Notes: generated by a model not told the origin, from the sequence alone. 64,000 bases of DNA from a candidate division TA06 bacterium (GCA_004376575.1 SOJN01000075.1:15842-79841), one strand, 5' to 3'; shown: positions 8,372 to 62,705, counted from the stretch's first letter. Numbers and translations: made by a program.

Positions 8372-9535
8372 TTACATCTTATGTCTGGAGCTCAGTCGGT
8401 TTACAGCGCGGGCGGCTTCTTCTCTTGCCCAGTGGTCTGCCGCTTCAGCTTCTTCCAGAGTGGGATCGGACTTGGAAGTGTGGTTAGACAGAACCTCTTG
8501 CAGTACCTGAGGTATCTGCGTAAAACCTATCTCGCCTTTCAGGAAGGCGGCAACCGCGATCTCATCAGATGCACTGAGAACAGCCGGCATGGTTCCGCCC
8601 TTACGGATAGCATCGTAAGCAAGGTCCAGACACGGGAACCTGCTGAAGTCAGGTCTGAAGAACTCGAGCTTTGCCACTTCAGCCAGATCAAGTTTATTCG
8701 TCAGCGACTCCATCCTCCGTGGGTAGGTGATGGCGTACTGAATGGGCAGCTTCATATCAGGAGTCGAGAGTTGTGCAATACACGAGCCGTCCACAAACTC
8801 GACTATTGAATGGACTATAGACTGGGGATGAATCACCACCTCGATCTTTGAGGGATCGATGTTGAAGAGCCATCTCGCTTCTATCACTTCCAGACCCTTG
8901 TTCATCAGTGTTGCAGAATCAACGGTAACCTTCTCTCCCATCTCCCACGTGGGATGGGCAAGGGCCTCTTTCGGAGTTATCGAGTCAAGCGAGGCCGCAT
9001 TCAAGAAGGGGCCGCCTGAAGCGGTCAGTATTATCCTTGACACCTCATCCCCGGGAGATTTCCCCATTGCCTGGTGTATGGCGCTGTGTTCGGAATCTAT
9101 GGCAATGATTTCAGCGCCGCTTCGCCTTGCTTCCGCAGTCAGAATCGACCCGTAAGAGACAAGAGGCTCTTTGTTTGCCAGGGCCACTCGCTTGCCAGCC
9201 CTCAAGGCTGCAAGAGTAGGCCTGAAGCCAACGGAACCGACCAGTCCGTTGACCACAATGTCAACATCGCTGCAGGAGGCTATCTCTGTCAACGCTTCAC
9301 CGCCAGACAGGACCTCGGTCCTCCCGGGAACCCTCCGGGCAAGCTCACCCTTCAGTGATTCATCACCTATTGATACAAGGGCGGGTTTATGTTTCCCTGC
9401 CTGCTCGGACAGAAGGTCAAGCTCATCTTTGCCACTGATGGCAAACACCACGAACTCCGGGGCAAGGTTCTCCAGGACCTGAAGTGCCGACCTTCCAATG
9501 GAGCCTGTTGATCCAAGAACAGCTACTCTCTTCAT
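8372..9535 (-). CDS. dxr: 1-deoxy-D-xylulose-5-phosphate reductoisomerase
   Basis: 387 aa; 'VAVLGSTGSIGRSAL' NADPH-binding N-terminus; Dxr fold motifs. Confidence 0.95.
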   Translation of the reverse strand: MKRVAVLGSTGSIGRSALQVLENLAPEFVVFAISGKDELDLLSEQAGKHKPALVSIGDESLKGELARRVPGRTEVLSGGEALTEIASCSDVDIVVNGLVGSVGFRPTLAALRAGKRVALANKEPLVSYGSILTAEARRSGAEIIAIDSEHSAIHQAMGKSPGDEVSRIILTASGGPFLNAASLDSITPKEALAHPTWEMGEKVTVDSATLMNKGLEVIEARWLFNIDPSKIEVVIHPQSIVHSIVEFVDGSCIAQLSTPDMKLPIQYAITYPRRMESLTNKLDLAEVAKLEFFRPDFSRFPCLDLAYDAIRKGGTMPAVLSASDEIAVAAFLKGEIGFTQIPQVLQEVLSNHTSKSDPTLEEAEAADHWAREEAARAVNRLSSRHKM

Positions 9536-10362
9536 CTCGCAGCGAAAAACCTCAAGTAATAGTATATCATTGGAGCTGTGAAAAGGAGCGAATCGAATCT
9601 GTCCAGAACTCCCCCATGTCCTGGTATGGTGGTCGCGGCATCTTTCATGTCTGCATCACGCTTTATGAGGGATTCTACGAGGTCGCCCACCTGGGCAAGC
9701 ACTCCAACTAAGAACCCAAGCACAAAAATATCAAACCAGGAAAGAAAGTGCGCATAAACCTGCTGGTAAACGAACCCGGCTATGACGGCAAAGAAGACAC
9801 CTCCAATGGCCCCCTCCCAAGACTTTTCAGGGCTTATCCTGGGAAGAAGCTTGTGCCTGCCAAACTTTATGCCGAAAAAATAGGCTGCACTGTCGCAGCT
9901 CCATGTCAGCACAAATGGGAGAAGTGCATATCCCGTGCCGGTCGAGTAGGTCTGTCCCATGGCGTACGGAAGTTCTCTCAACAGCACCAGGTGGCTCATC
10001 AGCCATCCCACGTACATGGCACCGAAAATTGTGGTCGCGATGTGGTTGATCGCCTGCTCTTCAACGCGCCTGGAAAGCTCGGTTATGGAGAGAGCAAGGA
10101 GCAGTATTGTGAATGTAAGATATGTGAAAAGGTAGCTCTGATAGAAGGCCGTCCAGCCCAGAAGAAGTGCGCAGAATGTTCCAAGCACCTTGTAGGGCTT
10201 CATCCCCCTGGCTTCGAGCATGGTGAGAAACTCGTAGGTGCCTATGCCTATCCCCAGCCCTATCAGGACCAGGTAGTAGCCTCCACCCGCCCTTGCAATA
10301 ATCACAAGCACGGGCAGGAACACCAAGGCCGTGACCAGCCTGCGGAGGAGGTTTACCCTCAT
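9532..10362 (-). CDS. cdsA: phosphatidate cytidylyltransferase
   Basis: 276 aa polytopic membrane protein; C-terminal 'GHGGVLDRFDS' CTP-transferase signature; 4-nt overlap with dxr. Confidence 0.85.
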   Translation of the reverse strand: MRVNLLRRLVTALVFLPVLVIIARAGGGYYLVLIGLGIGIGTYEFLTMLEARGMKPYKVLGTFCALLLGWTAFYQSYLFTYLTFTILLLALSITELSRRVEEQAINHIATTIFGAMYVGWLMSHLVLLRELPYAMGQTYSTGTGYALLPFVLTWSCDSAAYFFGIKFGRHKLLPRISPEKSWEGAIGGVFFAVIAGFVYQQVYAHFLSWFDIFVLGFLVGVLAQVGDLVESLIKRDADMKDAATTIPGHGGVLDRFDSLLFTAPMIYYYLRFFAAR

Positions 10363-11108
10363 TCCACGCCCCCAAATCTCCTTTCTCTCTTTTGAAAATC
10401 AGCAATTGCCTTGAATAGTTCATTGCGAGTGAAATCCGGCCATAGAAGATCCGTGACCCATATCTCGCTGTAGGCTATCTGCCACAGAAGGAAGTTTGAG
10501 ACTCGAAGCTCGCCACTCGTCCGGATCAGCAAATCCGGGTCCGGAACATCTGGCGCATAGAGGAATTGTCCAAAGGTGTCTTCGTTGATCTCCTCGGGAG
10601 CGAGTCTGCCGTCCAGGACCCTTTTTGCTGCCCTTGATGCTGCATCCGCTATCTCACCCCTCCCACCGTAGCTCAACGCAAGGATGAGAGTCAGCCCTTT
10701 GTTGTCACGGGTCTTGTCAACTGCCCTGGACAACTCCTTTTGCACAAAATCAGGTAGATCGTTAATCCTTCCTATCGCCATTACCCTCACGTCGTTCTCG
10801 TCAAGCTCCTTGATTTCGTTCCTCAGGAGGTTCCGGAGAATCCTCATCAGTGCCGAAACCTCAGCCTTTGGACGCCTCCAGTTTTCTCTCGAAAAGGTGT
10901 AGAGGGTGAGGTACTTGATGTCAATCTGCGAACATGCCTTCACCACATCACGCACAGATTCTATTCCAGCCTTATGGCCGAAGATTCTGGGCCTGCCCCT
11001 ATCCCTGGCCCACCTCCCATTTCCGTCCATGATTATGGCAATGTGCTGGGGGAGTTCCCCGGGATCTAACCCAACTTCATGCGGATGAATCTTCTTCTCT
11101 TTGGCCAT
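10359..11108 (-). CDS. uppS: isoprenyl transferase (undecaprenyl-diphosphate synthase)
   Basis: 249 aa; 'HIAIIMDGNGRWA' and 'LTLYTFSRENWRRP' cis-prenyltransferase motifs. Confidence 0.95.
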   Translation of the reverse strand: MAKEKKIHPHEVGLDPGELPQHIAIIMDGNGRWARDRGRPRIFGHKAGIESVRDVVKACSQIDIKYLTLYTFSRENWRRPKAEVSALMRILRNLLRNEIKELDENDVRVMAIGRINDLPDFVQKELSRAVDKTRDNKGLTLILALSYGGRGEIADAASRAAKRVLDGRLAPEEINEDTFGQFLYAPDVPDPDLLIRTSGELRVSNFLLWQIAYSEIWVTDLLWPDFTRNELFKAIADFQKRERRFGGVE

Positions 11109-24836: not shown

Positions 24837-25037
24837 TTACAACTTGACCACGTTAACAGCCTGCAGTCCCTTTTCGCCCTCAACTACTTCGAATTCAACT
24901 TCCTCGCCTTCGGCTAGGGTCTTGAATCCTTCTCCCTTAATGGCCGAAAAATGGACGAATACATCCTGGCCGTCCTCCTGAGCGATAAAGCCGTAGCCCT
25001 TGCTCTCGTTGAACCACTTAACCTTACCTTTCGCCAT
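24837..25037 (-). CDS. cspA: cold-shock protein (CspA family)
   Basis: 66 aa; '[15 protein letters not shown]' RNP1 and 'VFVHFSAI' RNP2 motifs. Confidence 0.95.
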
Positions 25038-25085
25038 GCAACCATACCTCCCTACTCAACAGGTTTGCCGCGAGTCACTCAAATG

Positions 25086-25113
25086 GATAGTAGCGACTTG
25101 GGCGGCATTGTCA
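25086..25113 (-). promoter_or_regulatory. putative sigma-70 promoter of cspA
   Basis: Minus-strand TTGACA, 16 nt, TACTAT, followed by a ~45-nt leader with GGGAGG RBS. Confidence 0.45.
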
Positions 25114-25127
25114 ATCCGAATTTCATC

Positions 25128-26096: not shown

Positions 26097-26167
26097 TTCA
26101 TACTTTTAACTACCACAAGCATTATACCCTATTCCCCATATCCTGTCAAGGGAAGTTGAATTCCGGA

Positions 26168-26262
26168 ACCACAGATTTCACAGATTATCACAAGATTCCC
26201 CATTCATGGTTTTGTTAATAGTTCATCGATTTTTCTGTGTCAATCTCGTGGAATCTTGTGGT
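26168..26262. repeat. inverted-repeat element copy A (arms CCACAGATTTCACAG / CTGTGTCAATCTCGTGGAATCTTGTGG)
   Basis: Shares 17-nt left arm, internal 'GATTATCAC-AGATT' and tandem AATCT(C/T)GTGG right-arm half-sites with the copy at 34788..34912. Confidence 0.6.
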
Positions 26263-26279
26263 TAGCGGTTCTGTTTCCG

Positions 26280-26308
26280 ATTTTCGATTTTCGATTTTCT
26301 ATTTTCGG
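26280..26308. repeat. (GATTTTC)4 heptanucleotide microsatellite
   Basis: GATTTTC GATTTTC GATTTTC TATTTTC immediately 3' of repeat copy A and just upstream of the guaB stop. Confidence 0.8.
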
Positions 26309-26311
26309 GTT

Positions 26312-27769
26312 CTACTTGGTGATTTCATAGTTCGGGGCTTCTTTCGTAATGGTAACATCATGCGGGTGGGATTCTCTAAGCCCCGCGCCCGTCACTCTCA
26401 CGAAACGCGCCCTTCTCCTCAGCTCTCCCAGATCCTTCGCTCCGCAGTAGCCCATTCCAGAGCGGATGCCCCCTACCAGTTGATAGACCGTGTCTGATAC
26501 GGGCCCCCTATAAGGGACTCTCCCTTCAACCCCCTCGGGAACAAGTTTCTTCGCACCCATCTGGAAGTATCTGTCCTTGCTTCCTGACTTCATCGCATCT
26601 ATTGACCCCATCGCCCTGTACACCTTGAATCTTCTTCCTTCCAGGGTAATGGTCTCCCCGGGGCTCTCGTCGGTCCCGGCGAGAAGATTTCCTACCATCA
26701 CGCTGTCCGCACCTGCGGCCAGGGCTTTCACAATGTCTCCAGAATATTTGACTCCGCCGTCCGCAATGACCGGTACGCCCTTAGCTCTTGCCACTGCACA
26801 GCAATCCATTATCGCGGTCAGTTGTGGCACTCCGACGCCTGCTATCACCCTTGTAGTACATATTGACCCCGGCCCTATTCCTACCTTTATCGCCGATGCG
26901 CCAAGGACTATCAGAGCCTTCGTCGCTTCCTTGGTGGCCACATTACCTACAATCAGCTCCACATCTTTTATTGTCTCCTTCAGTTTTCTCGCAGTATTCA
27001 TAACCATCTCAGAATGACCGTGGGCCGTATCCACCACTATGCAGTCTGCCCCAGAATTGGCGAGCGCTCTTGCCCTGTCAATTGTGTCCTCGCTGATTCC
27101 CACTGCTGCGCCCACCCTCAGCCTGCCCAGCGAATCCTTGCAGGCATTTGGATAGAGAATCGACTTCATCATGTCTTTTGCCGTGATGAGGCCCTTCAAT
27201 CTTCCCTCACTATCAACTACAGGTAGTTTTTCCACCTTGGCTTTTCTCAGAACTTCCTGTGCCTTTTCCAGGCTAGTCCCCACGGGAACACTGACCAGAC
27301 CTTCTCTGGTCATCAATTCCTCCACCTTCAGACTCATCTCATCCTCAAAGAGCAGATCCCTCTTTGTCAGCATACCAAGGAGATTTCCTTCCCCACCGAC
27401 AACCGGCAAGCCCGATATGGAAAACTCGCTCATTAATTGGATCGCCTGCCCAATGGTTTGATCTGGCGACAAGGTGATGGGCTGCTGGATGATACCGCTC
27501 TCAGACCGCTTCACCCTGTCAACCTGAGACGCCTGCTCATCAATGGTCGTGTTCTTGTGGATGACCCCAATTCCCCCTTCTCTGGCGATGGCGATGGCCA
27601 TCTCAGCTTCGGTGACAGTATCCATTGCGGCACTCACCAGTGGAATATTGAGCGTCAGCTTCCTGGTGAGTCTGGTGGCCACTTCAACCTGCCTGGGAAG
27701 GACAGAAGATTTCCTGGGCACCAGAAGTACGTCATCAAAGGTCAAGCCATTCCTCAAGTCACCTTTCAT
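26312..27769 (-). CDS. guaB: IMP dehydrogenase
   Basis: 485 aa; '[11 protein letters not shown]', tandem CBS domains, catalytic '[11 protein letters not shown]'. Confidence 0.95.
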
Positions 27770-27784
27770 GCAGCTACCTCCACT

Positions 27785-28612
27785 TCACGCTAAAGAGGCC
27801 GGGAGCTTCCCTTCAAACACCAGTACAGCGGCCCCCTCGAGAAAAACGTTGGTTATCGATTCGCCATCCCGGCGAAAGTGAACCTTCAGCACCTCTCCGC
27901 CTGCAGTCGCACAGTGGACAGGGGATCTAAGGCCCTTCTTTATCCCCTCCACCAGAGCGACAGCGACACATCCTGTTCCGCAGGCGAGAGTCTCATCTTC
28001 AACGCCTCTTTCATAGGTTCTCACTTTGAGCCGACCACGAGGGAGAACCTGCACAAAATCCACGTTGGTCCCGTCTGGCTGAAACTTGGGTAGATACCGT
28101 ATCTCCTTTCCAAGTTCCAACACATCAATCTTCTTCACATCTTCAACCGCAACCACCACATGGGGAACTCCAGTGTGCACATAGCTGGCTGAAACCTCTC
28201 TGCCAGTCAATTCAAGCGGAACCTCGAGATCCATCTGAGCTGGATCGCTCATCTTCAGCTTGACAGCATCTTTATTGACAGACGCCGCATGTATCCCGTC
28301 CTTCGACCTGAACCTCATCTTACGCCCCGCTATCTCCTTCACGTGTGCATAAAGGGCAGCACACCTACCACCATTTCCGCACATCTCGGCCTCAGATCCG
28401 TCAGCATTAAAATATCTCATCAAGAAGTCACATTCGTCGTCCTTTTCAATCAGAATCATTCCGTCGGCGCCAATCCCAACTCTCCTTTTGCATACGCTCT
28501 GCGCGAACTCGCTAAGGTCTTTATTGAGCTTTCCGTTTCGGTTATCGAAAACGACGAAATCGTTCCCGCTGCCCGACATCTTCGCAAAACTTATGGTACG
28601 AGTTTTCTTCAT
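27785..28612 (-). CDS. dapF: diaminopimelate epimerase
   Basis: Start taken at 'MKKTRTISFAKMSGSGNDFVV' (DapF N-terminal motif); second 'GTGCVA' Cys-containing half-site motif. Confidence 0.85.
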   Translation of the reverse strand: MKKTRTISFAKMSGSGNDFVVFDNRNGKLNKDLSEFAQSVCKRRVGIGADGMILIEKDDECDFLMRYFNADGSEAEMCGNGGRCAALYAHVKEIAGRKMRFRSKDGIHAASVNKDAVKLKMSDPAQMDLEVPLELTGREVSASYVHTGVPHVVVAVEDVKKIDVLELGKEIRYLPKFQPDGTNVDFVQVLPRGRLKVRTYERGVEDETLACGTGCVAVALVEGIKKGLRSPVHCATAGGEVLKVHFRRDGESITNVFLEGAAVLVFEGKLPASLA

Positions 28613-30507
28613 CTTAAGAGCACCGCCTTGCGAGTGATGCAAACCCCGGAAGCCTCAAGCCTGACAAAATAGATTCCAGCAGACACATCACGGCCTTGTG
28701 AGCTCTTTCCGTCCCAGTGGAGCCTTAAAGAACCATGCTCTCCTTTGCTGAGCACCTTCACCAGTCTCCCGGTCACATCGTAGACGCTAACTTGTGAGGA
28801 TTTGTATTCTCCTTCAGGCGGAATGTAAGCCTCAATCACCGTACGCCCAAAGAATGGGTTGGGGCTGCAAGCATAAAGCCTGGGTCCTCCAAACCTACTT
28901 TTCCCCATGACCTCTTCCTGCACACCCACGCTCGAGTGGTATACGACGAAGTCCAGTGTATCGGTACCGCCGTTGACTATCAGGCTATCATAATAGAAGG
29001 GTATCGAGTAGTAGAGGGTGTCCGGAAGGTTCGTAATGAAAATGCCATATGTGTCCGGTTCTGATGGGAACCAGTACGCGCCAGACGGATCAGGATTTGC
29101 CATTCCTGATGCGTTCTGTGGAGGAAAGAAAGGAGTCTGCCAGTAGGAGAGTAGAACGACAAGTGTTTCGAGCGGGAATTGGAGTGAACCGGGCACACTC
29201 GGGTGAAAAGAAATCGTTCCGCCTATGGTATCTGTGGCTGGAACGAAGTTGAAGTTCACGGTGTCACCTCCACTGAACCCTGACCTGACGAAACCGTTTT
29301 CCACCACATGCCCGGGAATCCGATCTCCCAAGGGAGGGTCTATGGCTACGCGCCAGGTGAGAGTATCAGCGGAATTCACACCAAGCCTATATAGTCCTGT
29401 CGCGGAATCGCACAGGGTCATGGCCATTCCCACACCAGACGTTTCACACTCCGCAATCATGAAATGAAAAGTATCGAGTGGAACCGTATCCACAATGGTC
29501 ACTTTCCCTACTATTATAGTGTCCGCCCTATAGACAATAAAGTCTTCTACGAGACTGTCACCGGGGTTCAGGGTTATGGAATGTTCAGGCGGGATAATGT
29601 AGTAGGGCAATAGACCGAACCCCCAGAATCCTAGATTCCAGTCCCCTAATTCTGAGTCGCTGAAGCAAATGAAATACCGTCCTGGTTCGTGAAGGCTTGC
29701 CTCCTTTGCCTCCCAGGTGCTGTCGAAGGCTGCGATGCCTAGCCCCCGCGGCAGACTGTCCCCCAGGTCATCCACTACAGAACCAACCACTTTTGCGGAA
29801 GCAAGCTGATAGGTGTAGTCCATGTTTGTTAAGGTGTCCAGGAGCGTCACGGTGTCATAATCTGGCCTCACGTATGCGAATATATCACTCGAAGGACCGA
29901 TCTCGTACTGTTCACCCAGTGCACTGGAATCGAGTTCTATTGTGTAGTCCCCATTTGTATCGGTAAACGCCGTCCAGAAACCTCCTATCATGGTATCCGG
30001 GCTCGCCTCCACCTCTATCAACGCGAGACTGTTGTTAGGGGGAGTTACACCCTCGAGGCTAACTGTTCCACTTATGATGACGTCAGGTTGAGGAAGCGAC
30101 AAAACATACCCGGTATCAGAGGCGAACGAGCCATCTTCGTCAGTGGCTCTCACGATATATGTCCAGCCAGGAGTAAGCCCGGCGGGCCCGACGTCCATCC
30201 TTATCCACCCTGGCATTGTATCCCCATCCGGCATGCCGAAGTTAAACGTGAAGTCCTGGTCGATCTGCGGCATGCCTATAAGAAATTTGTCTCCAGGGGA
30301 AATATCTCCGGATTGGTCAGTATCCACAAAAACCTCCCACCACACACCGCGGCCATTAACATTGCAGCCGAAGGCGAGCGTATCGCCGCTTGTCATGCCG
30401 GCGGCAGACGTATCTCCATTCGCAGACATGTAAACATAATCTGTGCCAGTAGCCGAAAGAGAACAAAAAACTGCCAAGACAACTACCAACAACGCTGTCC
30501 GCAACAT
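28609..30507 (-). CDS. secreted protein with type IX secretion C-terminal sorting domain
   Basis: 632 aa; signal peptide; C-terminus 'NPFF..TVIEAYIP...VSVYDVTGRLVKVL...WDGKSSQGRDVSAGIYFVRL...KAVLLR' matches the Por_Secre_tail pattern. Confidence 0.7.
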   Translation of the reverse strand: MLRTALLVVVLAVFCSLSATGTDYVYMSANGDTSAAGMTSGDTLAFGCNVNGRGVWWEVFVDTDQSGDISPGDKFLIGMPQIDQDFTFNFGMPDGDTMPGWIRMDVGPAGLTPGWTYIVRATDEDGSFASDTGYVLSLPQPDVIISGTVSLEGVTPPNNSLALIEVEASPDTMIGGFWTAFTDTNGDYTIELDSSALGEQYEIGPSSDIFAYVRPDYDTVTLLDTLTNMDYTYQLASAKVVGSVVDDLGDSLPRGLGIAAFDSTWEAKEASLHEPGRYFICFSDSELGDWNLGFWGFGLLPYYIIPPEHSITLNPGDSLVEDFIVYRADTIIVGKVTIVDTVPLDTFHFMIAECETSGVGMAMTLCDSATGLYRLGVNSADTLTWRVAIDPPLGDRIPGHVVENGFVRSGFSGGDTVNFNFVPATDTIGGTISFHPSVPGSLQFPLETLVVLLSYWQTPFFPPQNASGMANPDPSGAYWFPSEPDTYGIFITNLPDTLYYSIPFYYDSLIVNGGTDTLDFVVYHSSVGVQEEVMGKSRFGGPRLYACSPNPFFGRTVIEAYIPPEGEYKSSQVSVYDVTGRLVKVLSKGEHGSLRLHWDGKSSQGRDVSAGIYFVRLEASGVCITRKAVLLR

Positions 30508-49586: not shown

Positions 49587-50654
49587 TCATACGTGAAACC
49601 TGACTAGAATGACATCTCCGTCTTGAACTATGTAGTCCTTGCCTTCTGTTCTCATAAGACCACGGTTCTTCACTTCCTGCATGGCCCCAGATTTCTCAAG
49701 ATCAGAAAAGGACACCACTTCAGCCTTGATGAAGCCTTTCTCCAGGTCGCTGTGGACCTTTCCGGCAGCTTCCGTGACTCTGGAATTAACAGGAAGGTGC
49801 CACGCTCTCGTTTCAGGTCCCTTGATTGTATAAAACGTGATGAGGTTCAACAGAAGAAAACTCTCCAGAACGAGCTGAGCAAGGCCATAACCTTCCAGTC
49901 CGAGTTCCCGCCTCATCACCTTTCTCTCCTGTCTTTCAAATTCTGCAAGCTCAAGTTCGCCTTTTGCGCATACTGCGCAGGCTCTGGCCATCCTCTCTTT
50001 CGCATACTGCTTTACGCTTTCAAGCTCAGAGAAGTTATGTGAAGAAATGTCACCCTCATCCATGTTCATAACATAGAGCACAGGCTTTGCAGAAAGCAGA
50101 CCCGTGGGGGGGCCATCTATCGCTGCCAGAGAACCTCCAGAGTCCAGAATTTGTCTTGCCTCAAGCATGGACTGAAGAGAAGACTCGGCCTCCCTGTCGC
50201 CCTTTTCTGCACCCTTCTTTGCCTTCTCTATCCTTACGTCAAGGCTTTCCATGTCTGCCAGCGCGAGTTCAGTGGAGACGACTTCGGCATCTCTCAAGGG
50301 ATCAACAGACCCGTCAACGTGTGCTACCCCGCCCTTTCTGAAACACCTCAGAACATGCAGGATGCAATCAACCTCTCTTATGTGTGCAAGGAACGTATTT
50401 CCGAGACCTTCACCCTTGCTTGAGCCCTTGACCAGGCCAGCAATATCGACAAATTGTATGCGGGCCCCCGTCAGCTTCTCGGGCTTCATCAATTCCCCGA
50501 GTCTCTTCAGCCTCTCATCAGGGACCTCTGCTATTCCAACGTTTTTGTCAACAGTGGTAAACGGGTAGTCGGCAACTTGTGCATTTGCGCGAGTCAGCGC
50601 ATTAAACAGAGTTGACTTGCCGACGTTAGGAAGACCAACTATTCCAATCTGCAT
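49587..50654 (-). CDS. ychF: ribosome-binding ATPase YchF
   Basis: True start at '[21 protein letters not shown]' (internal Met of the longer ORF); ATG overlaps the hppA TGA (ATGA); C-terminal TGS domain. Confidence 0.9.
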   Translation of the reverse strand: MQIGIVGLPNVGKSTLFNALTRANAQVADYPFTTVDKNVGIAEVPDERLKRLGELMKPEKLTGARIQFVDIAGLVKGSSKGEGLGNTFLAHIREVDCILHVLRCFRKGGVAHVDGSVDPLRDAEVVSTELALADMESLDVRIEKAKKGAEKGDREAESSLQSMLEARQILDSGGSLAAIDGPPTGLLSAKPVLYVMNMDEGDISSHNFSELESVKQYAKERMARACAVCAKGELELAEFERQERKVMRRELGLEGYGLAQLVLESFLLLNLITFYTIKGPETRAWHLPVNSRVTEAAGKVHSDLEKGFIKAEVVSFSDLEKSGAMQEVKNRGLMRTEGKDYIVQDGDVILVRFHV

Positions 50655-55079: not shown

Positions 55080-55931
55080 TCAGCATGTTGTAGTCTCCCA
55101 AGCAGCCAGTCCTTCTTTGGTGAACTGTGATACAATTGTTCGACCAGAGTCTCTCCCCTCGACTACACAGAAAACACATGAACCGCTACCAGAGAGCAGG
55201 GCGCCTAAAGCTCCCAGTTGTAACATCATTTTCTTCATGTCAAACAGATCCGGATAATGTCCGAATACCACCTCCTCAAAAGAGTTATAAAGCCTTTTGC
55301 AAAGGGTGGATAAGTCCCCCCGCTCGAGCGCGCTGGCCAAAATCTTAATATCAAAGTCAGGTCGTGTCAACCCCGAATTCGCCTTTTGATAGGCCCAACC
55401 GGTAGAGATGGGAAACCCGGGAAAGACAACTACGAGATTCAGCTGCTTTTTTACATCCATGCGTTGCAGCCTGTCGCCCCTTCCAGTTGCCAGCGCAGTC
55501 CCTCCTCTTATGAAGAAGGGCACATCGCTTCCCAGAATCCTCGCTATTCCACACATCTTCTCCTCGTCCAAGCCAAGATCGAACAGGCGGTTTAAGCCTT
55601 TTATCGTCGCTGCTGCATTTGAGCTCGCACCACCCAAGCCTCCTCCCGAAGGTATCTTCTTGTCTATCTTTATCCTCACCCCCCTGGTCGAGTCCGCAGC
55701 TTCCAGCGTCATCTTCGCAGCGGCAAAAGCTAGATTCTCCTGTCCCTCAGGGACACCGGGAGTGTCGCAGACCACCTCTATCCCTGCACTCGTCTCATCA
55801 ATCTCAATCTCGTCACTCAAGTCTATCGTTTGAAGAATCGTCTCAACATCATGGTAACCATCGCTTCTCTTCCCCACGATGCGAAGACCAAGGTTCACCT
55901 TTGCACAGGATTTCATGCTGAGCAGGGGCAT
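55080..55931 (-). CDS. ispE: 4-diphosphocytidyl-2-C-methyl-D-erythritol kinase
   Basis: 283 aa GHMP kinase; 'AKVNLGLRIVGKRSDGYH', 'PSGGGLGGASSNAAA'. Confidence 0.9.
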   Translation of the reverse strand: MPLLSMKSCAKVNLGLRIVGKRSDGYHDVETILQTIDLSDEIEIDETSAGIEVVCDTPGVPEGQENLAFAAAKMTLEAADSTRGVRIKIDKKIPSGGGLGGASSNAAATIKGLNRLFDLGLDEEKMCGIARILGSDVPFFIRGGTALATGRGDRLQRMDVKKQLNLVVVFPGFPISTGWAYQKANSGLTRPDFDIKILASALERGDLSTLCKRLYNSFEEVVFGHYPDLFDMKKMMLQLGALGALLSGSGSCVFCVVEGRDSGRTIVSQFTKEGLAAWETTTC

Positions 55932-56530
55932 CAGGCGAACTCCGACTCGACAAGCTCACATAGTATGTGGCCAATGGTGATGTGACACTCTTGAATGCGG
56001 GCAACAGAAGATGATCCGACCTTGATGAGGAGCTCGCAGTTCTCGGCCATCTTTTCTCCGTGCTCGCCGGTAAGGCCAATCGTATGGATCCCCATACTGT
56101 GTGCCATTTCAAGAGCCTTGAGGATATTAGGCGATTTTCCACTTGTGCTGATGGCAATAAGGATATCTCCCTGCCCGCCCAGAGCCTCGATCTGTCTTGA
56201 GAATAGCACATCAAAGCCTTCATCATTGGGAACGGCCGTGAGTATGGAGGTGTCTGTGGTCAACGCGACTGCCGGAAGGGCCTTCCTCTTTTTCGCGAAC
56301 TTCCCAACAAGCTCGCAGGCGATGTGCTGGCTATCCGCAGCGCTACCCCCGTTCCCGCAGAGCATCACTTTGTGGCCGGCCTTGATCGCATCAACCAGAA
56401 GCTTCGCAGCTTCCAGAATCTCATCCGCTAGCCTTAAGAGTCCCAGTTTCACCTTAGCGCTTTCCTCGAGTACAGACTTAATCATCCTGGATTTGTCCTC
56501 AACCATTTGATCCACCTCCGCTCCGTCCAT
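55931..56530 (-). CDS. gmhA: D-sedoheptulose-7-phosphate isomerase (SIS domain phosphoheptose isomerase)
   Basis: 199 aa; 'KVMLCGNGGSAADSQHIACEL', 'ISTSGKSPNIL'. Confidence 0.85.
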   Translation of the reverse strand: MDGAEVDQMVEDKSRMIKSVLEESAKVKLGLLRLADEILEAAKLLVDAIKAGHKVMLCGNGGSAADSQHIACELVGKFAKKRKALPAVALTTDTSILTAVPNDEGFDVLFSRQIEALGGQGDILIAISTSGKSPNILKALEMAHSMGIHTIGLTGEHGEKMAENCELLIKVGSSSVARIQECHITIGHILCELVESEFA

Positions 56531-57356
56531 CCAGATACTCCTCCAAAGCTTCTTCCCAACTCCTCAAATATCCTCCGAAGGTCTGAGCATAAGTTTTATT
56601 GTCCAGAACTGAATAGGCTGGCCTGTTTGCTGGCCTTGCCGAAAGGCTGGTCTTTATCCTCTTTATTGTACAACCCTTAATACCTGCTTGCTTGCAGATA
56701 CTCACTGCAAAGTCATACCAACTGCACTCCCCGTTGTTTGTCACATGGTAGATGCCGAATTTCTTTGTCTCGATTATCTTCTTCAAGGCCAACGCCAGGT
56801 CTTTTGTGTATGTCGGATTCCCTCTCTGATCGTCCACCACTTCCAGGAATTCCTTCTCTCCGGCAAGAGTCAGGATTTTCTCCACGAAGTTCCGGCCTCC
56901 CTCTCCGAAGAGCCAGGAGGATCTGACTGTATAGTTATGACTGACAATCCTCTCCACAAACCATTCTCCTATCAGTTTTGTTCTTCCATACATGTTCAAC
57001 GGGCCGGGTTTGTCATCTTCCGAGTAGGGTCTGTCTGCTTGACCGTCAAACACATAGTCAGTGCTCACGTAAAGCATCGGGCACTTAGCCTCCTTGCAGG
57101 CAACAGCAACGTTCCTTGTGGCCACCACATTGAACCGATATGCCTTCTCGGGATCGGTCTCGCAATCATCAACATGGGTGAATGCGGCAAGATGGCACAC
57201 AATCTCAGGTCGCGTTTTGACTATCATTGCTGTGCAAGACGTTTCAGAGAGATCAAAGTCGGTTATGTCCACCCCTGTGACAGCATGGGCTTCCTTCAAA
57301 CTCTCACAAAGAGCTCTCCCAAGCATCCCCGCTGCCCCTGTCACCAATACCCTCAT
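56499..57356 (-). CDS. rfbD: dTDP-4-dehydrorhamnose reductase
   Basis: 285 aa; 'MRVLVTGAAGMLGRAL' Rossmann; 'YVSTDYVFDG', 'YGRTK' catalytic triad region. Confidence 0.85.
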   Translation of the reverse strand: MRVLVTGAAGMLGRALCESLKEAHAVTGVDITDFDLSETSCTAMIVKTRPEIVCHLAAFTHVDDCETDPEKAYRFNVVATRNVAVACKEAKCPMLYVSTDYVFDGQADRPYSEDDKPGPLNMYGRTKLIGEWFVERIVSHNYTVRSSWLFGEGGRNFVEKILTLAGEKEFLEVVDDQRGNPTYTKDLALALKKIIETKKFGIYHVTNNGECSWYDFAVSICKQAGIKGCTIKRIKTSLSARPANRPAYSVLDNKTYAQTFGGYLRSWEEALEEYLDGRSGGGSNG

Positions 57357-57402: not shown

Positions 57403-58158
57403 TCATCTTTTTCTCTTCCGCCTCATCTCTCTCACCTTGTTATTCACCTGCAGCAGACCATCGATGGATGAGCCGGCATCTCCCCACCATCCATCAACTA
57501 CATCGTAACACATCTGACTGCGTTTGATATAGACGTTGTTCACATCGGTTATTTCCAGTTCCCCTCTTCCTGAAGGTTTCAACTTTCTTATTACTTCAAA
57601 CACGTTCGAATCGTACATGTAGACTCCAATCACTGCAAAATGTGACTTCGGTCTCTTGGGTTTCTCCACCACACTCACAATCTTCTTTCCTCTAATCTCG
57701 GCGACACCATAGTCCTGGGGTTTATCCACCTCTTTCAAAAGTATCCTTGCTCCTTTCTTCTGCTTCCTGAACTTCCGGACAGAGGAGGCTATCGACTTCT
57801 CCAGCAGGTTATCGCCAAGCATGACCACTATCTTCCCACCCTCAGCAAAGTGCTCCGCCAACCCCACCGCTTGGGCGATCCCTCCCTCTTTTTCCTGATA
57901 GGCATACTGTATCCTCACAAGGCCAAACCCTCTTCCATCGCCGAGCAGTCTCAGAAAATCGCCGGCACTGTTGCCACCAGTGACTAGCAGTACCTCTCTT
58001 ACGCCCGCATCTACCAGCGTTTGTATGGGGTAGTATATCATCGGCCTGTCATAGACAGGCAATAGATGCTTGTTCGTAATCTTGGTCAGGGGATAGAGCC
58101 TCTTCCCCAGACCACCAGCAAGAATAACCCCTCGCACATGAACCTCCTTGCAAGGCAC
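57403..58158 (-). CDS. sugar-1-phosphate nucleotidyltransferase (RmlA/HddC-like, short form)
   Basis: 251 aa; 'GVILAGGLGKRLYPLTKITNKHLLPV' NTP-transferase motif; nucleotide and sugar specificity cannot be read from sequence. Confidence 0.7.
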   Translation of the reverse strand: MPCKEVHVRGVILAGGLGKRLYPLTKITNKHLLPVYDRPMIYYPIQTLVDAGVREVLLVTGGNSAGDFLRLLGDGRGFGLVRIQYAYQEKEGGIAQAVGLAEHFAEGGKIVVMLGDNLLEKSIASSVRKFRKQKKGARILLKEVDKPQDYGVAEIRGKKIVSVVEKPKRPKSHFAVIGVYMYDSNVFEVIRKLKPSGRGELEITDVNNVYIKRSQMCYDVVDGWWGDAGSSIDGLLQVNNKVREMRRKRKR

Positions 58159-58175: not shown

Positions 58176-58946
58176 CTAATTCTCAGGCTTTCTATGTATG
58201 GCCTGTCTGAATTCCGCCACCAGAGTTGGATCCTGTTCTATCATGTTTCCGGTCACCACGAAGTCGGCCCCAGCTTCCACCTTCTTGCTCGCGTTCTCAG
58301 GACTTCTGATCCCACCCCCTATTATAAGGGGAAGTCCGGTTTCTGACTTCACCTTCTCTATCATCTTTTCAGGCACCGACAGTTTTGCTCCGCTTCCCGC
58401 ATCCATATATATCATCCTCATGCCCAGATACTTGGCGGCCAGTGCATGTGCAACAGCACAATCAATGTCATCTCTGTCTATGGGATCTGTTCGGCTCTCC
58501 ACGGCAACCGACGTCTGGGATCCTGAACCAACGATGATGTAGCCCACAGGAATCGTTTCAAGGCCCATCTCTCTTATTATGGGTGCTGCCTTCACATGTT
58601 CCTCTATCAAATATCTTGGGTTTCTCCCACTGACCAGCGAAAGAAAAAAAACGGCATCAGCGTTCTCGTTCAACTGATCTGCGTTGCCGGGGAAGACGAT
58701 GATGGGAAGGTTTGTGTTGGATTTCACTTTCGTTACGAAGTCATCGAAGATTCGCCTGCGCACAGACGATCCACCAATGAGTATTGCATCTGCACCATTC
58801 TTTGTTATTGACGTAACGACATCTTCTATCCTGAGACTGTATCTACCTTCAGGGTCAAGAAGAACAAAATAGCCAGCACCGTTCTTCCTGACCGAATCCA
58901 TAAGATACTTGAATACCGAACCCGACTGAGATTCCATGGATTTCAC
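58176..58946 (-). CDS. PcrB/GGGPS-family (hepta/geranylgeranyl)glyceryl phosphate synthase (glycerol-1-phosphate prenyltransferase)
   Basis: 256 aa; 'GADAILIGGS' and C-terminal 'LPLIIGGGIRSPENASKKVEAGADFVVTGNMIE' align by eye with B. subtilis PcrB 'DAVIIGGS' / 'FYGGGIKDAETAKQYAEHADVIVVGNAVYE'; ATG overlaps the stop of the upstream reductase. Confidence 0.8.
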   Translation of the reverse strand: MKSMESQSGSVFKYLMDSVRKNGAGYFVLLDPEGRYSLRIEDVVTSITKNGADAILIGGSSVRRRIFDDFVTKVKSNTNLPIIVFPGNADQLNENADAVFFLSLVSGRNPRYLIEEHVKAAPIIREMGLETIPVGYIIVGSGSQTSVAVESRTDPIDRDDIDCAVAHALAAKYLGMRMIYMDAGSGAKLSVPEKMIEKVKSETGLPLIIGGGIRSPENASKKVEAGADFVVTGNMIEQDPTLVAEFRQAIHRKPEN

Positions 58947-60118
58947 ATAAGGTGCCTGGCAAGCGCCAGGAATCTTGGAGAAGATTTTATCAATGGGACC
59001 ACGAGCTGCCGCGGCCTTAGTTCCCTCACGATCTTTCCATCGAAATACTTCTCCACAAAGTCAAAGATTGTTTCGAAATCATCGTCTGTTAATTTGAGGA
59101 AAACTTCGCGCGCCCTGGCTCTATACCTGAGGTCCTTGCCATGCTTTTTGTTCCATTCCTTCTCATATTGGGAGAGCGCCTTTCTGGATACATCGCCTTC
59201 TTTAGAACATCGGGCCGCAACTCTGCCTGCAATCGCTGCTGAAAAAAGTCCATTCGCAATGCCTGCGCCTGTCATCGGGTCTGACACCCTGGCAGCATCC
59301 CCCACCAGCATAACGGCATCACCCACCAGACGGTCTGCAGGAGATGTTGGGACACTACCTGATATTGTTTCCAGCTTGCTGGCATGCGGAAACCTCTTTT
59401 CCACAAGCTCATCCAGATATTCAAACGGTTTCTTCTTCGTCAGGTGCGGAGATATGCCCAAGCCAACATTGGCAGTGGCTTCGCTCTTGGGAAAAATCCA
59501 GGCATAACCCCCAGGTGCTACTTCATTACCGGCAAGGAACTCTGTATATCCGAGATCGACCTCAACCCTCCCCAGAAGGTACTCGGCGCAGGCATGATAG
59601 TCTTCTGGCAACAGTTCCCCATATATCGACGTCCACCGGGCAACCCTTGAATTTACGCCATCTGCACCGATCAACACCTTTGAACGAACCACCTTCTTGT
59701 TACCCCTGTGTGAAACTTCAACTCCCACGACCCTGTGATTCTCTGACAGAAGCCCAACCACCTCAGCATTGGTCAACAGGCACGCACCCGCCTGTACTGC
59801 CATGGCCGCAAGATCCCTGTCAAACATCTTCCTCTCCAGTATATAGCCTGCATCTGGATGTTCTATCTTGCAAGAGCGGCCGCTGGGAGTTGTCACTATG
59901 GCCCCCACAACCTCAGTCGCTATCCAGGAGGGTTTTGGCGCCATCAGCGAGTTGAGAACAGGCTTGCTTATCCCCTCTGCGCAGGCAACCGGGACGCCAA
60001 TGGCCCTTTTCTTCTCCACAACAAGAACGCTCGCACCCAGTTCGGCTGCTACCTTCGCTGCCATGGACCCACTTGGGCCTGCACCCACAACCACAATATC
60101 GTATTCCTTATCGAGCAC
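58943..60118 (-). CDS. geranylgeranyl reductase family FAD-dependent oxidoreductase (digeranylgeranylglycerophospholipid-reductase-like)
   Basis: 391 aa; 'YDIVVVGAGPSGSMAA' FAD-binding dinucleotide motif, 'LIGADGVNS', 'GDAA' motifs of the GGR/ChlP family; translationally coupled to the PcrB/GGGPS gene. Confidence 0.8.
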   Translation of the reverse strand: MLDKEYDIVVVGAGPSGSMAAKVAAELGASVLVVEKKRAIGVPVACAEGISKPVLNSLMAPKPSWIATEVVGAIVTTPSGRSCKIEHPDAGYILERKMFDRDLAAMAVQAGACLLTNAEVVGLLSENHRVVGVEVSHRGNKKVVRSKVLIGADGVNSRVARWTSIYGELLPEDYHACAEYLLGRVEVDLGYTEFLAGNEVAPGGYAWIFPKSEATANVGLGISPHLTKKKPFEYLDELVEKRFPHASKLETISGSVPTSPADRLVGDAVMLVGDAARVSDPMTGAGIANGLFSAAIAGRVAARCSKEGDVSRKALSQYEKEWNKKHGKDLRYRARAREVFLKLTDDDFETIFDFVEKYFDGKIVRELRPRQLVVPLIKSSPRFLALARHLM

Positions 60119-62705
60119 TTTTGAGCAGATCCTTCACTATTTGAGGAACACGGCCTATTGCCTCATCAATCTTCCCGACGTCCTTGCCTCCAGCCTCTGC
60201 AAGAGTAGGCTTCCCACCACCTCCGCCTCCAGTCACCTTCGCCACCTCTCTTGCCACATCACCCGCCTTTAGCCGATTTGTCAAATTATCTGTAACAAAA
60301 GCAACAAAGACCGCCTTTCCCTCTATTTCGGATCCGAACACACCCACACACTTCCCCTTGACCCTTGCCCTGGCCTGGTCAGCCATTTGTCTCAGGCCGA
60401 CTATGTCACTGAACTCAACCCTCGAGGCCATCACCTGTATCCCTTCTACCAACCTTGCTTTTCCCACAAGTTTCACGGCGAAAGCTGATGCCAGTTTGGA
60501 TTCGAGCTGTCTCACCCTTTTCTTCAGGATCTTCTGTTCCTGGAGAAGTTTTTGAAGCTTGTTTTCTAAGTCTTCCGTCGTAGAACCCAGAGCATCCGAA
60601 ACTCTAGAAAGTACTTCTTCCTCCTTCTTCATGTGCTCGTAGGCTCCTCTTCCCGTCATTGCCTCTATTCTTCTTATGCCGGCTGCAACTGCACTTTCAG
60701 AGACAATCCTGAACAATCCGATTTCGCCAGTAGCATCAAGGTGCGTTCCGCCGCAGAGCTCGGCGGAGAAGTCACCTACCCTCATGACTCTCACATCATC
60801 ACCATATTTCTCACCAAACAGGGCGATAGCCCCCATCCCTTTGGTCGCTTCGTCATAGGTGGTGTTTACAGACACAACAGACAGGTTCCCCCTCACCTTG
60901 GAGTTTACCATCTCTTCTACCCGGTCAATCTCTCTTCTTGTCAACGGATTGTAGTGGGTAAAATCAAATCTGAGTCTTTCAGGCTCCACAAGCGAACCTT
61001 CCTGCCTGACGTGCTTTCCCAGGACGACCCTCAGGACACCCTGCAAAATGTGAGTCGCTGTATGGTTTCTGGCAATGTCTTTCCTCCTCTCGCAGTCAAC
61101 CTCAGCTGTCACCGTCCCGCCTTTAACCTCACCCCTTTCCAGTTTCCCCACATGGACTACTCCATGATCTGTCCATATTGTGTTGGTCACCTTCACCTCG
61201 AAATCATCAGAGTATATTCGGCCTGTGTCGCCAACCTGCCCGCCCGCCTCTGCGTAGAATGGAGTCTTGTCCAGTCTCATTTCCACGTCCCCATTGCTTA
61301 CTCGCCATCCAATAATCCGTGCCTGAATCGAGATTCTCTCATAGCCTACAAACTCGGCTTCCTCTCCCTCCAGACCCTCCCAACCTTCTCCCATGTCTGC
61401 CGATTGAAACCTGGAGGCAGCTCTTGCTCTCTCTTTTTGAGCAGCCATCTTCTCTTCGAATTCTTTGAGATCGACTCGAAGACCTCTCTCCCCGGCAATC
61501 TCCAATGTCATATCTATGGGAAAACCATAGGTGTCGTACAGTCGGAAGGCGTCGTCGCCGGATATTACACCACTGCCAGTGGAAGTTATCTCCTCGAACA
61601 GCGCCAGGCCCTGATTCAGGGTTCTGAAAAACCTTTCCTCCTCACTCTTTATGATCAAGGACACTTGTTCCCTTCTCTCCACCAGTTCAGGATAAGGCTC
61701 CTTCATCACATCTGTGACCGTCCCCACAAGTCTATACAGGAAAGGTTCCTCGGTCCCGAGGAATACTCCCCTTCTTAGCGCTCTCCGTAGTAGTCTTCTG
61801 AGAACATACCCCCTGCCTTCATTCGATGGTATGACCCCCTCGGCACATGCAAATGTGAGAGCTCTTATGTGGTCAACTATTACATTGAAAGCTACTTTAT
61901 CTTTTGAGTAACTCACGTCGAGGGCCCTGACCGCCTCATCGATTATTGGAGAAAAGAGATCCGTATCGAATATACTATTGCCGCCCTGCATGGAGACTGC
62001 GAGCCTCTCCATACCCATACCAGTATCGATCCCCCTGTTCGCCAAAGGAATCATCTGGCCCTTTTCCGTCTTTTCAAATTGAGGAAAGACCAGGTTCCAC
62101 AATTCAAAGTACCTATCGCAGTCACACCCCGGCTGGCAGGTCTCCTTCCCGCATCCAAATTCTTCTCCCATGTCATAGAAGATTTCAGAACAGGGTCCGC
62201 ATGGCCCGGTGGCACCAGCCGGACCCCAGAAGTTGTCTTCCTTGCCAAGTCTGTAGATGATCGAACTGTTTAAGCCGATATGTTTGTGCCACAAATCGTA
62301 AGCTTCGTCATCTTCTTCATAGATGGACACTGAGAGCCGCTCTACTGGAATCTTGAGAACCTCGAGAAGGAACTCCCATGCCCATTCAATCCCCTCTTTC
62401 TTGAAGTAGTCGCCGAAGGAAAAGTTACCCAGCATTTCGAAAAAGGTGTTGTGCCGCACGGTCTTGCCGACACTTTCTAGGTCGCTCACCCTCAAGCATT
62501 TTTGCACTGAGGCAGCGCGGGTATAAGGCAAAGGTACGAGCCCAGTGTAGTAAGACTTGAACTGGACCATACCCGCACTGGTAAACAGAAGACTGGGATC
62601 TCTCTGAGGAACAAGAGGCGAACCGTCTACGATCTTGTGATCTCTTTCCTCAAAGAATTCAAAGAATCTTTTTCTCAGTTCATTCGATGTCATTCTCTCG
62701 ATCAT
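60108..62705 (-). CDS. alaS: alanine--tRNA ligase
   Basis: 865 aa; class II motifs, editing-domain 'HTATH...H' and C-terminal DHHA1-like region. Confidence 0.95.
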   Translation of the reverse strand: MIERMTSNELRKRFFEFFEERDHKIVDGSPLVPQRDPSLLFTSAGMVQFKSYYTGLVPLPYTRAASVQKCLRVSDLESVGKTVRHNTFFEMLGNFSFGDYFKKEGIEWAWEFLLEVLKIPVERLSVSIYEEDDEAYDLWHKHIGLNSSIIYRLGKEDNFWGPAGATGPCGPCSEIFYDMGEEFGCGKETCQPGCDCDRYFELWNLVFPQFEKTEKGQMIPLANRGIDTGMGMERLAVSMQGGNSIFDTDLFSPIIDEAVRALDVSYSKDKVAFNVIVDHIRALTFACAEGVIPSNEGRGYVLRRLLRRALRRGVFLGTEEPFLYRLVGTVTDVMKEPYPELVERREQVSLIIKSEEERFFRTLNQGLALFEEITSTGSGVISGDDAFRLYDTYGFPIDMTLEIAGERGLRVDLKEFEEKMAAQKERARAASRFQSADMGEGWEGLEGEEAEFVGYERISIQARIIGWRVSNGDVEMRLDKTPFYAEAGGQVGDTGRIYSDDFEVKVTNTIWTDHGVVHVGKLERGEVKGGTVTAEVDCERRKDIARNHTATHILQGVLRVVLGKHVRQEGSLVEPERLRFDFTHYNPLTRREIDRVEEMVNSKVRGNLSVVSVNTTYDEATKGMGAIALFGEKYGDDVRVMRVGDFSAELCGGTHLDATGEIGLFRIVSESAVAAGIRRIEAMTGRGAYEHMKKEEEVLSRVSDALGSTTEDLENKLQKLLQEQKILKKRVRQLESKLASAFAVKLVGKARLVEGIQVMASRVEFSDIVGLRQMADQARARVKGKCVGVFGSEIEGKAVFVAFVTDNLTNRLKAGDVAREVAKVTGGGGGGKPTLAEAGGKDVGKIDEAIGRVPQIVKDLLKSAR

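Follow-up and report, generated by a model that had tools for sequence, protein, structure and literature searches.

Native archaeal-type ether lipids in a bacterium would bear on the "lipid divide" and on the role of mixed membranes in early evolution, and the question of whether a bacterium might produce them is raised by a pair of adjacent genes in the genome of a candidate division TA06 bacterium. The pair occupies positions 58176 to 60118, on the minus strand, of a 64,000-nt stretch of DNA (GCA_004376575.1 SOJN01000075.1:15842-79841; the full stretch is referred to here as the window), and it encodes a geranylgeranylglyceryl phosphate synthase (GGGPS) of the PcrB family and a geranylgeranyl reductase (GGR), an FAD flavoprotein. 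GGGPS, GGR, and DGGGPS, the enzyme expected to add the second isoprenoid chain, have already been reported in FCB-group (Fibrobacteres-Chlorobi-Bacteroidetes) bacteria (Coleman et al. 2019, PMC6431249; Villanueva 2021, PMC7852524). The gene pair described here is real and anciently inherited, and its kind is already documented in such bacteria, making it a new example rather than a new phenomenon. Our preferred explanation, to which we assign a probability of roughly 0.68, is that the pair carries out, in a TA06/Latescibacterota-like bacterium, the opening and closing steps of archaeal-type isoprenoid ether-lipid synthesis in the form that belongs to the FCB superphylum.

Family assignment of the GGGPS and GGR

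The GGGPS gene (58176..58946, minus strand) encodes a protein of 256 aa that matches the Pfam PcrB family (PF01884) over residues 23-240 with an E value of 1.9e-47 and a score of 162.1 bits (cutoff 23.9). It also passes the NCBIfam equivalog model TIGR01769 GGGP ("phosphoglycerol geranylgeranyltransferase"; 210.6 bits, cutoff 161.55) and model NF003198 (287.2 bits, cutoff 247), as expected from the original prediction, made from the DNA alone, that a PcrB/GGGPS-family prenyltransferase is encoded at this position. Group membership was assigned by scoring the protein against all PDB sequences. The best match is the Group II enzyme of Flavobacterium johnsoniae (4JEJ; 194.7 bits, 43% identity, residues 20-239), and further Group II enzymes follow, including that of Methanothermobacter thermautotrophicus (4MM1; 171.2 bits, 38% identity), 6NKE (162.9 bits), and 6JO3 (157.1 bits). 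Group I enzymes score far lower: the heptaprenylglyceryl phosphate synthases of Bacillales reach 41.6 (3VZX) and 41.4 (1VIZ) bits, and the Archaeoglobus fulgidus enzyme (2F6U) reaches 33.1 bits. The protein thus does not cluster with the Bacillales synthases, whose NCBIfam model NF003197 gives only 45.7 bits, far below its cutoff of 260. By these similarity scores the window GGGPS belongs to Group II (IIb-like) and is not of the Bacillus Group Ib type.

The GGR gene (58943..60118, minus strand) encodes a protein of 391 aa and, like the GGGPS, has family scores far beyond chance. It passes the cutoffs of Pfam GGR_cat (PF22578; E 4.7e-23, 81.3 bits, cutoff 27) and of the NCBIfam superfamily model TIGR02032 GG-red-SF (219 bits, cutoff 158.8), confirming the prediction of a GGR-family flavoprotein. 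Its best solved relative is 3OZ2, the digeranylgeranylglycerophospholipid (DGGGPL) reductase of Thermoplasma acidophilum (224.8 bits, 36.6% identity). Scores against the NCBIfam DGGGPL-reductase models are 234.9 bits for the Thermoplasmatales model NF041160 (cutoff 780), 168.4 for NF041080 (cutoff 580), and 101.5 for NF041385 (cutoff 700). Archaeal lipid reductases are the closest relatives of the protein. Models of chlorophyll-type and menaquinone reductases stay well below the Thermoplasmatales score: 122.5 and 67.3 bits for the BchP/ChlP models TIGR02023 and TIGR02028 (cutoffs 343.3 and 505.3), and 60.6 bits for the MenJ model NF045655 (cutoff 700). Archaeal GGRs are described as carrying the motifs GxGxxG, a conserved Cys47, RxxFD, PxxYxWxFP, and LxGD (PMC10821996). 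The window GGR carries all five in alignment with 3OZ2: GAGPSG at 12, C46 within CAEG, RKMFD at 96, PGGYAWIFP at 202, and LVGD at 264 and 271.

Active-site and interface residues of the GGGPS

Functional residues of the GGGPS were checked against a list taken from a review (PMC9385802) and from Kropp et al. (PMC7888582), and residue counts among homologs were obtained from an alignment of 123 sequences. The phosphate-binding loops (beta-alpha 6, 7, and 8) are intact, with G184-S185-G186, G210-G211-G212, and G233 invariant throughout, including in the 123-sequence alignment. A Tyr/Tyr/Glu triad, Y124/Y165/E167 in the A. fulgidus enzyme, governs glycerol-phosphate stereospecificity and catalysis (PMC9385802). 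Both tyrosines are kept in the window protein as Y136 and Y180, while the glutamate is replaced by Asp182, which retains the carboxylate; Glu is found at this position in 72 homologs and Asp in 51, and Asp also occurs in GGGPS proteins encoded next to DGGGPS. In the beta-alpha 8 loop the window protein has Asn234 where characterized Group II enzymes have Thr and Group I enzymes have Asn216. This Thr is a descriptive trait of Group II and not a criterion of membership, and since Asn predominates among the homologs (90 N, 19 S, 11 T, and 3 D), the Thr rule fails when the uncultured bacterial clade is taken in its entirety. We considered and rejected the idea that Asp182 and Asn234 are oddities of the window protein, as these residues are present in 51 and 90 of the 123 homologs, respectively, and in every context class; from the alignment we read them as normal variation inside the uncultured bacterial clade. 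The numbering of the M. thermautotrophicus triad differs between sources, with the review (PMC9385802) giving Y134/Y178/E180 and a count along the 4MM1 chain giving Y130/Y172/E174; the same chain count reproduces V86 and W141 correctly, and the triad residues are therefore named here by motif.

The residue predicted to limit chain length, in helix alpha-3', is L92, which aligns with I90 of F. johnsoniae and V86 of M. thermautotrophicus. Homologs have Leu (67), Val (34), or Ile (22) at this position, and a medium-sized hydrophobic limiter of this type would be consistent with a C20 substrate; Group II enzymes of Bacteroidetes make C20 ether lipids (PMC7888582). The position of the aromatic hexamer anchor (W141 in M. 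thermautotrophicus) is occupied by V149 in the window protein, by Thr and Ile in its relatives at loci L001 and L004, and by Phe or Tyr in most homologs, so that the non-aromatic anchor is specific to the sub-lineage of the window. As V149 is non-aromatic, the enzyme is predicted to be non-hexameric and is probably dimeric, as are enzymes of Flavobacteriales and Thermoplasmatales (PMC7888582).

Coupling and inheritance of the gene pair

The two genes overlap by 4 nt (58943..58946, minus strand), with the GTG start codon of the GGGPS gene overlapping the TGA stop codon of the GGR gene; the junction reads cttATGTGAaatccATGg. The original prediction had called this an ATGA overlap. Direct reading of the junction upholds the 4-nt start/stop overlap and corrects its sequence to GTGA, an arrangement that suggests translational coupling. 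An alternative ATG start for the GGGPS lies 5 nt past the GGR stop. In the relatives, the spacing between the two genes ranges from the same 4-nt overlap (L001 and L002) to gaps of 15 nt (L004) and 92 nt (Latescibacteria bacterium DG_63, represented by loci L005 and L006). At its other end, the GGR gene begins with a GTG codon that overlaps the stop codon of alaS (60108..62705, minus strand), the gene immediately upstream, by 11 nt.

The pair lies within a block of genes, in the order GGR-GGGPS-NTPtransferase-rmlD-gmhA-ispE-prs-L25-pth-PPase-ychF-S6-ssb, that is kept in L001, L004, and DG_63, where GGGPS identity to the window protein is 89%, 68%, and 53%, respectively. The nucleotidyltransferase gene directly follows GGGPS in L001, L004, and L005 as well, and recA-recX-alaS is found upstream of the block in L001 and L004; in DG_63 and in candidate division TA06 bacterium SM1_40 (L010), alaS and GGR lie some 9 kb apart, with other genes in between. 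Assemblies of independent origin (ENA, Logan, NCBI, and JGI) show the same arrangement of the pair. GC content is uniform across the window at 0.49-0.53, and GC skew is likewise uniform. As the composition is uniform and synteny extends down to 53% GGGPS identity, the pair is not a recent insertion, and we reject recent horizontal transfer or mobile insertion on these grounds. The original prediction of a stable chromosomal pair therefore stands, and vertical inheritance over a long period is supported. A copy of the GGR with 100% identity (P0128) is carried on a 97 kb JGI contig.

A GGGPS gene directly after alaS, without GGR, is also found in KSB1 and two other lineages (L007, L008, and L009, with L008 being KSB1), within the order pgpA-cinA-thpR-recA-recX-alaS. 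Small insertions, each confined to its lineage, interrupt the conserved recX-alaS-GGGPS region: an open reading frame (ORF) resembling a restriction endonuclease lies between alaS and GGGPS at L007:8926-9888, and a BrnT/CopG toxin-antitoxin pair lies between recX and alaS in KSB1 (L008:6795-7329).

The nearest named relatives of the window GGGPS are "Latescibacteria bacterium DG_63", WOR-3, and KSB1, while those of AlaS are candidate division TA06 bacterium SM1_40 (56%), followed by WOR-3; the attribution to the FCB group fits these relationships. The contigs of SM1_40 and DG_63 are 99.9-100% identical over an 8.2 kb overlap. These two bins are one population, and one of the two NCBI phylum labels is wrong; for this reason we refer to the lineage of the window as TA06/Latescibacterota-like. 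The relatives derive from sediment and subsurface metagenomes. A scan of a genome collection with a single protein query returned one match, to Flexithrix dorotheae, at 39%.

GGGPS neighborhoods in metagenomes

The surroundings of GGGPS were surveyed in 80 further metagenome loci (L012-L091; 41-53% GGGPS identity) using locally built hidden Markov models (HMMs) and clustering of neighboring ORFs. Among the 65 loci with usable upstream sequence, the gene immediately upstream of GGGPS is alaS in 22, GGR in five, and neither of these in 38. A UbiA-family gene, a putative DGGGPS, adjoins GGGPS in eight loci (in L022, for example, it scores 164.6 bits against Pfam UbiA). Three loci (L037, L041, and L056) have the order GGPPS-DGGGPS-GGGPS, in which the first gene encodes a polyprenyl synthase of the type expected to produce geranylgeranyl diphosphate (GGPP), and three others (L022, L031, and L034) have the order DGGGPS-GGR-GGGPS. 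By association, these two kinds of cluster tie bacterial GGR and GGGPS to the diether pathway, and among the comparative evidence for the function suggested below they carry the most weight.

In some GGRs of the survey that adjoin GGGPS, the reductase is fused at its N terminus to a 2x[4Fe-4S] ferredoxin domain (L022:8531-9988, L025:52-1548, L031:585-1997, and L034:8537-9910), which suggests a built-in electron donor in those proteins. Upstream of the DGGGPS-GGR-GGGPS clusters of L022 (3058-7714) and L034 (2443-7602) is a conserved, co-directional gene set, which encodes a polysaccharide deacetylase, another but more divergent member of the UbiA family (346-353 aa), a polysaccharide pyruvyl transferase, and a protein of about 550 aa with no Pfam match.

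The commonest neighbor of GGGPS is a GmhA-like SIS gene, present in 36 loci, mostly at position +1 or +2. We considered whether this gene might encode a novel enzyme supplying glycerol-1-phosphate (G1P) and found this idea unsupported: GmhA was always the best match, the proteins score 184-210 bits, at the GmhA equivalog threshold, GmhA-like motifs are kept on inspection by eye, and the window contains split HldE-like genes. We take the SIS neighbor to be an ordinary GmhA carried along by conserved synteny.

Proposed function and alternatives

In the pathway that we favor, the methylerythritol phosphate (MEP) pathway, represented in the window by dxr and ispE, would supply GGPP. The Group II GGGPS, a TIM-barrel prenyltransferase, would join GGPP to glycerol phosphate and so create the first of the ether bonds, presumably with the preference for G1P seen in characterized homologs, and a DGGGPS encoded elsewhere in the genome would add the second chain. 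Activation with CDP could be carried out by the bacterial CDP-diglyceride synthase CdsA (9532-10362), which is encoded within a dxr-cdsA-uppS group (8372..11108, minus strand; Pfam DXP_reductoisom, CTP_transf_1, and Prenyltransf), and bacterial head-group enzymes would then finish the phospholipid. The FAD-dependent GGR, probably translationally coupled to GGGPS, would hydrogenate the geranylgeranyl double bonds to give phytanyl chains. The end product would be an archaeol-type phospholipid with saturated chains, forming part of a mixed membrane and made by enzymes that may be co-transcribed with alaS and envelope-sugar genes. The sequence data establish the family and subgroup of the enzymes, their conserved motifs, the gene coupling, the synteny, and the pathway association of orthologous genes; the activity of the two enzymes, their substrate, their product, and its abundance are what we infer. 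Published work makes several of these steps plausible. GGGPS and DGGGPS orthologs are found in FCB phyla including Latescibacteria, with DGGGPS present in all 12 phyla surveyed, and no G1P dehydrogenase (G1PDH) is reported for Latescibacteria or for the majority of the remaining phyla of the group (Coleman et al. 2019, PMC6431249). Expression of GGGPS and DGGGPS of Cloacimonetes in Escherichia coli yields unsaturated archaetidylglycerol, CarS can be replaced by bacterial CdsA, G1PDH is dispensable in E. coli, and Cloacimonetes metagenome-assembled genomes also encode GGRs (Villanueva 2021, PMC7852524).

Several observations weigh against this explanation. No ORF of the window matches PF01040, the UbiA family to which DGGGPS belongs, and an HMM built from the eight UbiA genes adjoining GGGPS found no match at E <= 10 in the six translated frames of the window. 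Neither G1PDH (EgsA/AraM) nor CarS was found among the Pfam-scanned ORFs of the 64 kb, a polyprenyl-synthase HMM detected no trans-polyprenyl (GGPP) synthase there, and none of these four enzymes is encoded within the 10 kb flanks on either side of the locus in close relatives. GGR adjoins GGGPS in just five of the 65 informative loci of the survey. The window GGR reaches none of the equivalog-level DGGGPL-reductase cutoffs, its best score being 234.9 against 780, and for this reason it is assigned at the superfamily level only. It also lacks the ferredoxin domain carried by the GGRs of the DGGGPS-GGR-GGGPS clusters; the motif CxxCxxCxxxCP was not found in the protein, and no Fer4 gene adjoins it. 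Asp182 and Asn234 of the GGGPS depart from the triad Glu and the Group II Thr, though both are common in homologs, including those linked to DGGGPS. Finally, we found no report in the literature of native production of these lipids by any FCB bacterium.

The most substantial alternative, which we consider unlikely, is that the pair makes a single-chain product only, such as a (dihydro)geranylgeranyl- or phytanyl-glycerol(-phosphate), serving as a minor or specialized lipid and not as a bulk diether phospholipid. The lack of DGGGPS from the window and the flanks of its relatives would be explained in this way, as would the fact that GGR alone travels with GGGPS in the lineage of the window. There is also a precedent in Bacillus, where the heptaprenylglyceryl phosphate made by PcrB is subsequently dephosphorylated and acetylated (PMC6431249), and the biological function of bacterial GGGPS products has been described as unknown (PMC7888582). 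Against a single-chain product, the window enzyme scores as Group II and not as the Bacillus Group Ib type, orthologous GGGPS genes adjoin DGGGPS in eight metagenome loci, and DGGGPS orthologs were recovered in 12 of the 12 FCB phyla surveyed (Coleman 2019, PMC6431249).

It is highly unlikely, in our view, that the GGR acts instead on some other isoprenoid (for example a polyprenol, a pigment, or the side chain of menaquinone) and that its adjacency to GGGPS is incidental synteny. Archaeal GGR paralogs with non-lipid substrates do exist (PMC10821996), all of the equivalog-level lipid-reductase cutoffs are missed by the window protein, most GGGPS loci have no adjoining GGR, and the whole block around the pair consists of mixed housekeeping genes, unrelated to one another and kept in synteny. 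The similarity scores point the other way, with 60.6 bits for MenJ and 67.3 bits for ChlP against 234.9 bits for the Thermoplasmatales lipid reductase. Incidental adjacency is also difficult to reconcile with the 4-nt overlap of the two genes, with the persistence of their adjacency as GGGPS identity falls from 89% to 53%, and with the position of GGR between DGGGPS and GGGPS in three loci.

A further proposal would have the enzymes scavenge or catabolize archaeal lipids from sediment rather than synthesize lipids. Transfer from prenyl diphosphates is effectively irreversible, which counts against this proposal, and the genes follow alaS as part of a constitutive operon of housekeeping genes and are associated in other lineages with GGPP synthase, a biosynthetic gene. 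The idea was raised by Coleman et al. for FCB bacteria without G1PDH, an enzyme that most FCB phyla are reported to lack (PMC6431249) and that was not found in the window, and the sediment and subsurface origin of the relatives would suit it. The Cloacimonetes homologs, however, are biosynthetic in E. coli, where G1PDH is not essential (PMC7852524), and we regard scavenging as very improbable.

It is scarcely credible that the pair came recently from archaea by horizontal transfer, or that it is an artefact of binning or of chimeric assembly: archaeal enzymes are among the closest solved structures, but the best structure match of the GGGPS is the bacterial enzyme of F. johnsoniae, neither GC content nor GC skew departs from uniformity across the window, the junctions overlap genuine bacterial genes within a single contig, and synteny and the recurrence of the arrangement in ENA, Logan, NCBI, and JGI assemblies contradict it.

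An extension of our preferred explanation, ether-lipid synthesis by the pair, can also be formulated, and we hold it to be doubtful as a whole. Under this broader proposal, the alaS-linked GGGPS, joined here by GGR, would be a constitutive ancestral housekeeping function across an FCB-related radiation (TA06/Latescibacterota, KSB1, and WOR-3-like bacteria), producing native saturated ether lipids in a mixed membrane, and the replacement of Glu by Asp and of Thr by Asn in the glycerol-phosphate pocket of the GGGPS would shift the enzyme toward sn-glycerol-3-phosphate. If true, this shift would explain a pathway without G1PDH and would place archaeal chains on a bacterial backbone.

Comparison with characterized systems

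The closest characterized relative of the window GGGPS is the F. johnsoniae enzyme (4JEJ, Group IIb; Peterhoff et al. 2014, as summarized in PMC9385802 and PMC7888582). The two share the PcrB TIM-barrel family, the phosphate loops, both tyrosines, a medium hydrophobic limiter (L92 versus I90), and a non-aromatic anchor position, which is associated with dimers in Flavobacteriales. The window protein differs in having Asp182 for the triad Glu, Asn234 for Thr, and Val rather than Arg at the anchor, and its gene lies in an alaS-GGR-GGGPS context, not in the arrangements of Bacteroidetes, in an uncultured TA06/Latescibacterota-like host. In contrast, the PcrB of Bacillus subtilis (1VIZ, Group Ib) has in common with the window enzyme its Pfam family (PF01884) and its description as a bacterial enzyme forming an ether bond to glycerol phosphate; it belongs to Group I rather than Group II, gives a score of only 41 bits, uses a C35 substrate, and has a different limiter architecture.

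The system of Candidatus Cloacimonetes (PMC7852524) resembles the window in having an FCB-related bacterial GGGPS together with lipid genes of bacterial type (those for fatty acids and CdsA), a GGR in the genome, and no CarS. Vertical inheritance was argued from phylogeny in Cloacimonetes and is argued here from synteny. The Cloacimonetes GGGPS is co-localized with DGGGPS, while the window GGGPS is coupled to GGR with no DGGGPS within 64 kb, and the activity of the Cloacimonetes enzymes has been demonstrated, while the window enzymes are known from their genes. The GGR, for its part, shares with T. acidophilum 3OZ2 its length class and all of the FAD and catalytic motifs, including the flavin-adjacent Cys and PxxYxWxFP; it differs in being bacterial, in scoring below the Thermoplasmatales cutoff (234.9 versus 780), and in having no 4Fe-4S protein encoded alongside it.

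The locus extends the published list by one further uncultured lineage. Three features of gene context were not found in the literature cited here: a GGGPS gene placed immediately behind alaS, most often with gmhA close by, in a position deeply conserved across several candidate phyla; the insertion, in one lineage, of a GGR lacking ferredoxin between alaS and GGGPS, with probable translational coupling to the latter; and the clusters DGGGPS-(ferredoxin-fused GGR)-GGGPS or GGPPS-DGGGPS-GGGPS in other lineages. These features add weight to vertical inheritance over a long period and to a place for GGR in the bacterial pathway; production of the lipids themselves is a prediction. The compact operons are suited to heterologous testing. 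For the lipid-divide question, the locus is added context that would not surprise a specialist, and by itself it does not make the question testable.

The surrounding block and other features of the window

Downstream of GGGPS, and on the same minus strand, the block continues with a short RmlA-like sugar-1-phosphate nucleotidyltransferase (57403..58158; Pfam NTP_transferase 1.3e-53; TIGR01207 225.7 bits, below the cutoff of 360.65), rmlD, encoding dTDP-4-dehydrorhamnose reductase (56499..57356; TIGR01214 309.5 bits, cutoff 224.05), a GmhA-like SIS phosphoheptose isomerase gene (55931..56530; TIGR00441 193.5 bits, cutoff 209.45), and ispE, a kinase gene of the MEP pathway (55080..55931; TIGR00154 224.4 bits, cutoff 138.7), which is the last gene of the tight block. 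The co-directional block of a sugar nucleotidyltransferase, rfbD (rmlD), and gmhA downstream of alaS was correctly described in the original prediction. The gaps from GGGPS through the nucleotidyltransferase gene, rmlD, and gmhA to ispE are 17, 46, -32, and -1 nt, none exceeding 46 nt, and the first real gap, of 179 nt, follows ispE and precedes prs. A scan of promoter and terminator consensus sequences gave matches at chance level, all of them intragenic, and thus co-transcription of the block as an operon is proposed from its gene spacing.

Read as its longest ORF, the nucleotidyltransferase gene begins with GTG at 58158. The true start is probably a second GTG, at 58137, which follows AAGGAGG and gives a product of 244 aa, as in L001. 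A functional tie between the nucleotidyltransferase and rmlD genes and the lipid genes was considered and is unsupported, as these are lineage-specific insertions between GGGPS and gmhA. What looks like a split HldE is found at 14858-16376, where a kinase of the PfkB family and a cytidylyltransferase-like protein are encoded separately; with the GmhA-like gene added, an ADP-heptose pathway for the outer-membrane glycolipid is suggested.

The window consists of bacterial housekeeping DNA throughout, with nearly all genes on a single strand, and includes nusA-infB-rbfA, proS, dxr-cdsA-uppS, frr-pyrH-tsf-rpsB, hslVU, topA, rpsF-ssb-rplI, prs-rplY-pth, and type IV pilus genes. The pilus-like region (16923-30507) encodes a prepilin peptidase and two N-methyl pilins, and within it are large ORFs with no Pfam match at 17691-18641, 21787-23910, 23939-24631, 25128-26096, and 28609-30507. 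GC skew is below zero in every 2 kb bin, and 62 of the 65 ORFs chosen by a simple greedy filter lie on the minus strand; skew and strand bias are consistent with one replichore with strongly co-oriented genes. Of the three ORFs chosen on the plus strand, no fewer than two (49623-50042 and 50251-50568) are spurious, being antisense to ychF. A break in ychF near 49.6-50.6 kb had been suspected and was rejected as an artefact of the greedy filter, the gene being intact.

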